DNA from: Escherichia coli
GTDB taxonomy: Bacteria > Pseudomonadota > Gammaproteobacteria > Enterobacterales > Enterobacteriaceae
Strand: one strand, 5' to 3'
Assembly (NCBI RefSeq): GCF_011045215.1
Contig: NZ_CP049201.1
DNA: 64,000 nucleotides
Under the pieces are notes generated by a model. The model worked only from the letters and a program-made list of their open reading frames with translations. It searched no databases and was not told the DNA's origin. Positions 22,409 through 23,120 of the stretch are shown one piece after another (position 1 is the stretch's first letter; each line of letters opens with the position of its first letter). Made by a program: the position numbers and the translations under genes.

Positions 22409-22812
22409 ACCGCGAAAAGGGTGTTTCGTCACTGGCTCTGGTCCTGATGCTGCTGGTTTTGGGTAGCTTGCTATTACAAGGAATGAGCCAACAGGATCGC
22501 AGTTTTGCCTCTCGCGTGAGCATGGAAAGTCAGTCATTGCGCCGCCAGGCCATCGTTCAGTCGGCGCTGGCGTGGGGAAAAATGCACTCCTGGCAGACGC
22601 AGCCAGCAGTTCAGTGCTCGCAGTACGCTGGAACCGATGCCCGGGTTTGTTTGCGTTTATTGGCAGATAATGAAGCCTTATTGATTGCCGGTTATGACGG
22701 CGTTTCGTTGTGGCGAACAGGTGAAGTCATCGATGGAAACATTGTTTTTTCGCCACGCGGCTGGAGCGATTTTTGTCCGCTGAAAGAGGGGGCGTTATGT
22801 CAGCTTCCCTGA
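22405..22812 (+). CDS. ygdB: DUF2509 protein in the ppd operon
   Basis: 135-aa ORF with GTG start overlapping ppdB stop. Confidence 0.88.
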
Positions 22813-23120
22813 AGAATCAATAAGGCTTTAGCCTGCCGGAGGTAATGTTGGCGATGGTGCTGATGGTGATGATTGTCACTGCGTTATCGGGTTTCCAGCG
22901 AACATTAATGAACAGTCTTGCCAGCAGAAATCAGTACCAACAGCTCTGGCGGCATGGTTGGCAGCAAACGCAACTGCGCGCGATTTCGCCACCTGCCAAC
23001 TGGCAGGTCAACCGAATGCAGACATCGCAGGCGGGATGTGTCAGCATCAGCGTTACGCTAGTTTCACCCGGGGGCAGAGAAGGCGAGATGACCCGCCTGC
23101 ATTGCCCGAATCGTCAGTAG
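22797..23120 (+). pseudogene. ppdC: prepilin peptidase-dependent protein C with in-frame TAA at codon 9
   Basis: ATG at 22797 gives the 107-aa frame (MSASLKNQ then TAA at 22821-22823, then GFSLPEVMLAMV...); the only uninterrupted ORF starts at ATG 22845 (91 aa) and lacks the GFSLPE prepilin motif. Confidence 0.55.

Follow-up and report, generated by a model that had tools for sequence, protein, structure and literature searches.

Does the ppdC gene of this strain of Escherichia coli still encode a functional minor pilin? We have studied this question in a window of 64,000 nt, the whole stretch of DNA that was analysed (contig NZ_CP049201.1 of assembly GCF_011045215.1). A preliminary description of this DNA had noticed an in-frame TAA in the prepilin leader of ppdC, and had left two possibilities, that this strain carries ppdC as a pseudogene, or that the longer annotation of the gene is wrong. 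The first of these has held, since codon 9 is CAA elsewhere, and the second has fallen, refuted by a conserved leader and by a profile model of 107 positions. The conclusion that emerges is that ppdC is here very probably a recent, strain-private pseudogene, generated by a single C to T transition that converted CAA to TAA at codon 9. The pseudogene is an ordinary one, i.e., a known gene carrying a nonsense allele and not a new biological feature, and the data contain no sign of recoding, phase variation or a new element.

Direct reading of the window reveals a ppdC frame that opens with ATG at 22797-22799 and runs for 107 codons to a terminal TAG at 23118-23120. Codons 2-8 are TCA GCT TCC CTG AAG AAT CAA, and codon 9 is TAA, abutting the codons for G-F-S-L-P-E exactly as had been described. 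The sole intact open reading frame in the ppdC frame starts at ATG 22845; it was said to encode 91 aa lacking the leader and cleavage site, and both the list of open reading frames and the profile searches agree with this. Further in-frame starts are found 3′ of 22845, at 22848, 22854, 22857, 22863, 22866 and 22869. The features of the gene are as follows.

22797 to 23120, + strand: ppdC reading frame of 107 codons, broken at codon 9; very probable pseudogene

22821 to 22823, + strand: premature TAA (Gln9 to stop), with T at 22821 in place of the C of other strains

22824 to 22841, + strand: codons GGC TTT AGC CTG CCG GAG for G-F-S-L-P-E, the prepilin peptidase cleavage and methylation motif, lying between the premature stop and any restart codon

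22838 to 22843, + strand: internal Shine-Dalgarno (SD)-like GGAGGT, 15 nt after the premature stop, with a putative role in re-initiation

22845 to 23120, + strand: residual ppdC open reading frame (ATG, 91 aa), a leaderless fragment

The preliminary description had attributed the stop to a single C to T change in a CAA (Gln) codon, and had proposed alignment to K-12 and other strains as a check. In an alignment of 501 nt around ppdC, codon 9 is CAA, not TAA, in both K-12 MG1655 and O145:H28 RM12761, so that the attribution was correct. The stop is a single defined departure from a codon that orthologues conserve, to which considerations of chance do not pertain. O145:H28 RM12761 is the best-matching complete genome around ppdC, and the window differs from it at just 2 of the 501 nt. 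Both differences are C to T and both lie inside ppdC, one being the nonsense change at 22821 and the other a synonymous change (AAC to AAT) at 22931. From K-12 the window differs at seven of the 501 aligned nt, four of which are within the 324 nt of ppdC. The T at the synonymous position 22931 is shared with 29 complete genomes from other lineages, and homoplasy or recombination at that site is therefore implied.

The genes that precede ppdC in the minor-pilin operon are all intact.

21384 to 21854, + strand: ppdA, first gene of the operon, intact; 156 aa (NF007800, 249.5 bits, with a TIGR02532 GFxxxE domain)

21845 to 22408, + strand: ppdB, minor pilin, intact; 187 aa (equivalog NF007848, 326 bits)

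22405 to 22812, + strand: ygdB (DUF2509), intact; 135 aa (equivalog NF008569, 255 bits)

The order thyA-ppdA-ppdB-ygdB-ppdC-recC and the overlaps between the genes are identical to those of K-12, O145:H28 and PS10-3, the last being the closest to the window over 24 kb (99.2%) among 5,426 complete genomes. Compared with PS10-3, ppdA contains no stops and no indels. The ygdB gene overlaps the start of ppdC by 16 nt, and its TGA (22810-22812) ends 9 nt 5′ of the premature stop; ygdB is therefore unaffected by it. The PpdC of K-12 and EHEC (b2823; NF007660, PF12528 and PF07963) occupies the same locus in the same gene order, and differs in having CAA at codon 9 where the window has TAA. Comparison of E. 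coli haplotypes gave piN/piS ratios of 0.13 for ppdC, 0.13 for ppdA, 0.28 for ppdB and 0.23 for ygdB, with 0.009 for thyA and 0.025 for recC. Judged by these ratios, ppdC is clearly under purifying selection, with weaker constraint than the housekeeping genes.

The type IV pilus of E. coli is poorly expressed under laboratory conditions. The products of ppdA, ppdB, ygdB and ppdC have been listed as the minor pilins for assembly of the E. coli PpdD type IV pili (bioRxiv 10.1101/856302), and the minor-pilin cluster is kept in most Shigella strains (PMC3225857). The transcription unit has been written as ppdAB-ygdB-ppdC-recC (PMC3936743). The genes ppdAB-ygdB-ppdC have been equated with comNOPQ of H. 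influenzae, both groups being located upstream of recC, and the same regulation by Sxy at CRP-S sites has been reported for them (PMC12616744). This likeness is one of operon organization and regulation; E. coli differs in that it does not readily undergo natural transformation, and the operon of this strain is broken in its last gene. A further system that may be counted among the closest is the minor pseudopilin GspI (EpsI/XcpV) of the T2SS, with its GspI-J-K tip complex. A search for a CRP-S site (TGCGA-N6-TCGCA, with up to two mismatches) found none upstream of ppdA in 21200-21383, and overall the matches were fewer than in shuffled sequence.

How common is the TAA allele? Megablast requires an exact 28-mer, and a query of 41 nt centred on the variant therefore matches only those genomes that carry it. 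Two common local haplotypes were queried in this way as 41-mers among the complete RefSeq genomes of E. coli (n = 5,426).

K-12/O145-type haplotype with CAA: 4,123 of 5,426 complete genomes

K-12/O145-type haplotype with TAA: 0 of 5,426

Second common haplotype (AGG...AGT) with CAA: 1,149 of 5,426

Second common haplotype (AGG...AGT) with TAA: 0 of 5,426

Codon 9 of ppdC is thus CAA in at least 5,272 of the 5,426 genomes (97%), and the remainder, about 154, have other local haplotypes that lie outside the reach of both queries. There were also no matches to the TAA allele in JGI metagenomes and GTDB species representatives, where even the wild-type sequence was matched only 3 and 2 times, so that these zeros carry no weight.

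An identical TAA in ppdC was found in one other assembly, GCA_964246605.1 (CAXTRC010000001.1, 5977-5979), which belongs to phylogroup A. It was found among the assemblies with a 91-aa call for ppdC, and it is the only one to share the TAA among the loci with 88- or 91-aa calls that we inspected. Its identity to the window is only 98.4% in 12.3 kb, and it carries different alleles at 22789, 32 nt 5′ of the stop, and at 22860, 39 nt 3′ of it. Apart from the stop, its identity to ATCC 8739, C and B-type strains is approximately 100%, and these strains all carry CAA; in the 12.3 kb it is separated from ATCC 8739 by about 2 mismatches. Given the different flanking alleles and the CAA of its near relatives, the same transition has therefore arisen at least twice, and by this comparison the stop in GCA_964246605.1 is a recent independent event. 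Deamination at a Dcm site (CCWGG) was considered as a hotspot that might cause the recurrence, and was rejected; the mutated C sits in TCAACAAGG, which contains no Dcm site.

Could the inactivation be adaptive? Loss of a minor pilin might be selected repeatedly, e.g., as an escape from pilus-dependent recognition by phage or host, or as the shedding of a costly competence system. Such selection would be in keeping with the appearance of the same CAA to TAA change on two unrelated haplotypes, O145-like in the window and ATCC 8739/B/C-like in GCA_964246605.1, and with the further disrupted or internally deleted ppdC alleles that circulate in E. coli and Shigella. But two occurrences across very many assemblies are what is expected from plain recurrent C to T mutation in a dispensable gene. 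Moreover, the piN/piS of ppdC across haplotypes is that of a gene under purifying selection, CAA is kept in more than 97% of the complete genomes, and ppdA, ppdB and ygdB remain intact in the window. We consider adaptive loss quite unlikely.

The other ppdC alleles of E. coli and Shigella comprise frameshifts (P0075, P0085 and P0114-P0116), in-frame deletions in the helix and a deletion of the ygdB-ppdC junction (L010). The in-frame deletions, which recur in the hydrophobic α1 helix of PpdC, generate forms of 104 aa and 95 aa (P0005 and P0016, with 59 and 26 member sequences, respectively), and a 103-aa PpdC of S. flexneri (P0008) carries a helix deletion and lacks RHGW. The same gene is hit in each case and all point to its dispensability; the lesion in the window is distinguished from the others as a clean substitution that turns codon 9 into a stop. 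Sequencing error probably accounts for some of the other alleles, above all for the homopolymer indels of long-read assemblies. Independent loss-of-function alleles of ppdC that arise despite purifying selection fit a system that is conditionally dispensable and rarely expressed.

Is the substituted base itself real? The preliminary description had allowed that it might be a sequencing error. By exact-protein look-ups with the RecD and RecB of the window we reached a Logan assembly of run SRR11014969, which shows no difference from the window (100.000% identity) across 15,447 nt (19558-35004), TAA included. The T at 22821 is thus found in a separate assembly and is probably real, although that assembly was possibly built from the same reads. 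The agreement rules out an artefact of the assembler and not one of the library or of the reads, which may underlie the genome of the window too.

The remainder of the window was also compared with PS10-3. Forty genes were aligned with no indels, the differences being mostly synonymous, with transitions more frequent than transversions. Of 39 genes compared in full, ppdC alone contains an internal stop and the other 38 are intact. A genome that is generally error-ridden, or rich in pseudogenes in the manner of Shigella, is ruled out by these 38 intact genes and by the finding of one IS200 as the sole IS in the 64 kb.

If the T were an error of sequencing or consensus, the strain would truly have CAA and an intact ppdC. 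The near-singleton nature of the allele, with no occurrence among the 5,426 complete genomes, is what an error would produce, and a short-read draft assembly is suggested by the tRNA-fMet gene, which is present once in the window and three times in relatives. Four observations are opposed to this: the separate assembly of SRR11014969 contains the base within 15.4 kb of identical sequence; the change is a substitution and not a homopolymer indel, while error-prone assemblies show ±1 changes in the CCC run of the leader together with many other broken genes; the 38 other fully compared genes are clean; and the same substitution in the unrelated GCA_964246605.1 shows it to be a biologically accessible mutation. 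We therefore regard an error as quite unlikely, slightly more so than adaptive loss.

The CCC run of the ppdC leader (22807-22809) contains ±1 indels in assemblies L003, L008, L011, L016, L021 and L024, and ±1 indels of ppdC are found at other nearby sites also, mostly in long-read assemblies with many broken genes. In L003, L016 and L024 many further genes are fragmented, and their indels are probably homopolymer errors of long reads. Those of L008, L011 and L021, which are otherwise clean or nearly so, may be genuine frameshift alleles.

We have also asked where ppdC properly starts. When Gln is restored at codon 9, Pfam N_methyl (PF07963) matches residues 6-30 (E = 1.8e-6) and Pfam T2SSppdC (PF12528) matches residues 33-104 (E = 1.1e-30), and the GFxxxE model TIGR02532 scores 24.5 bits, its cutoff being 16.3. 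The restored protein matches the NCBIfam model NF007660, a curated equivalog of 107 positions with a cutoff of 86 bits, over positions 1-107 with 217 bits, whereas the 91-aa frame fills only positions 17-107, with 183 bits. Products of 88 and 91 aa have PF12528 and lack PF07963. By these matches the DNA is clearly orthologous to ppdC, with a truncated product.

A database search found PpdC homologues of 106-107 aa in Citrobacter, Salmonella, Intestinirhabdus, Yokenella, Superficieibacter and other genera. In an alignment of 14 homologues, with identities down to 52%, residues M1, G10, F11, S12, L13 and E15 are invariant. M1 is the initiator, and G10, F11 and E15 constitute the class III signal, in which a leader is followed by Gly-1, Phe+1 and Glu+5. 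A type IV prepilin is recognized, within a single translated open reading frame, by a short basic leader that ends in Gly, with Phe or Met in position +1, Glu in position +5 and some 20 hydrophobic residues. In the window the TAA severs this motif from its start; with codon 9 restored the ppdC sequence does contain the complete signal, as detected by N_methyl and TIGR02532.

Short forms of ppdC are nonetheless called in public databases, at 88 aa in 472 index blocks and at 91 aa in 54, often with the upstream frame open. The assemblies with internal-ATG calls that we inspected (L004, L006, L007, L009, L012 and L015-L024) had an intact leader, a ±1 indel or a deletion. The entries for a short PpdC are therefore mostly annotation artefacts arising from the choice of start, and do not speak for a short isoform. 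The length of the ppdC product alone cannot be used to detect a pseudogene, because gene callers mis-start even where the leader is intact. Such calls, and the strong SD-like GGAGGT ahead of these starts, might be taken to mean that the true product is the short form initiated at ATG 22845 or 22854, that the 107-codon annotation is over-extended and that the TAA is irrelevant. This is very unlikely. Residues that the short form would lack are invariant across genera, the N_methyl domain is located at residues 6-30, the equivalog model has 107 positions, and RefSeq annotates ppdC genes at 324 nt. The GGAGG is accounted for as merely the Pro-Glu-Val codons of the conserved L-P-E-V motif. The annotation that follows for this genome is of a ppdC pseudogene with an internal stop, and not of an 88- or 91-aa protein.

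Having established that codon 9 lies within the genuine leader, we can consider what the nonsense allele would do to the protein. Normal PpdC is a minor pilin of 107 aa with a leader of ten residues, Gly at -1, Phe at +1 and Glu at +5, followed by a hydrophobic α1 helix and then a small three-stranded sheet. Translation that begins at the native start, itself coupled to ygdB, would in this strain end after eight residues, two before the cleavage site. As is characteristic of a pseudogene, the intact orthologue of the relatives is under purifying selection, and the stop removes a part that is essential for function.

Ribosomes might restart beyond the stop. The calculated anti-SD duplex of the internal GGAGGT (-10.8 kcal/mol) is close in stability to that of the native ppdC SD (-11.1 kcal/mol), compared with -6.6 kcal/mol for the SD of recC, and seven in-frame start codons (ATG, TTG or GTG) lie behind it at 22845-22869. 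With a strong internal SD and seven following starts, restart is therefore plausible. The resulting product would have 83 to 91 residues, beginning inside the hydrophobic helix, and would lack not only the leader and the cleavage site but also the N-terminal Phe and Glu+5. For this reason it should be neither processed by prepilin peptidase nor built into the tip complex of the pilus. In type IV pilins and pseudopilins generally, a leaderless form cannot be processed by prepilin peptidase, and is not expected in the pilus or the priming complex.

The function of PpdC has most likely been lost, to judge from the motifs that are missing, and the functions of the type IV pilus and of DNA uptake are probably impaired. 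Of the four minor pilins that have been listed for assembly of the PpdD (HCP) pilus, the strain is predicted to lack one, and it is probably also without Sxy-dependent DNA uptake. Given the poor expression of the pilus in the laboratory, there may be no phenotypic effect at all.

The opposite can be imagined, that the change is constructive. The CAA to TAA change would then create a mini-frame of eight codons with an SD-driven restart 22 nt later, such that a leaderless PpdC is kept in the inner membrane and serves the pilus or competence machine as a subunit with a dominant-negative or regulatory role, while the ribosome traffic into recC is preserved; we regard this as highly improbable. Decoding of the TAA by an ochre suppressor tRNA, or readthrough that still yields full-length PpdC, is scarcely credible, since in E. 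coli a G after TAA makes for efficient termination, no sign of a recoding signal is seen, ochre suppressors are rare in natural isolates, and tRNA-Met(CAT) is the sole tRNA close to the locus.

If ppdC is a nonsense pseudogene, is the expression of recC compromised? Two features downstream of ppdC are relevant here.

23123 to 23127, + strand: SD of recC (AGGAG), 5 nt before the recC ATG; -6.6 kcal/mol

23133 to 26501, + strand: recC, intact, 1,122 aa, the downstream gene of the polycistronic unit

RecC, RecB and RecD are all intact in comparison with PS10-3. The preliminary description had expected little polarity on recC because 10 nt separate the ppdC stop from the recC start. The separation is in fact 12 nt (23121-23132, TCAGGAGCCGCT), and while a mild effect is probably right, the shortness of the gap is not the reason for it. 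Weak polarity is to be expected because recC has its own SD, because a strong SD and a cluster of restart codons follow the stop, and because the stretch of 309 nt 3′ of the stop should load Rho poorly. This stretch contains 26% C and 30% G, with C/G ratios of 0.5-1.25 in windows of 78 nt; being G-rich and C-poor, it would therefore be a poor Rho-loading substrate when untranslated, and restart translation would also cover it. On these grounds recC, recB and recD are probably expressed almost normally. A promoter scan found no σ70-like site on the + strand in 21150-23400 that might serve as an internal promoter for recC, a result that is uninformative.

Two further relatives were identified through a RecB identical to that of the window, GCA_016674245.1 and DRR064052. 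Both have CAA at codon 9 of ppdC. They differ from the window at about 150 sites in 15 kb (19558-35004), clustered in lgt-thyA and recC-ptrA; with this recombination-type pattern they are mosaic relatives. Among the 5,426 complete genomes the lineage of the window has no near relative, the best match being at 99.2%.

Elsewhere in the window, three differences from PS10-3 were observed. An insertion of about 705 bp lies between ygdI and gcvA at 42527-43233, and contains an open reading frame at 42631 to 43140 on the - strand that matches the IS200/IS605 transposase model NF033573 (E = 2.6e-43), the sole IS detected in the window. Between amiC and mltA a tRNA-Met(CAT) is present as one copy (37960-38036, - strand), compared with three in tandem in PS10-3, reflecting either a tandem repeat that has collapsed in a short-read assembly or a true difference in copy number. 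Lastly, the alignment with PS10-3 breaks in the recD-argA intergenic region at approximately 35024-35046, where about 60 nt of the reference are aligned twice and the window has about 80 extra bases, which suggests a difference in the copy number of a REP-type intergenic repeat.
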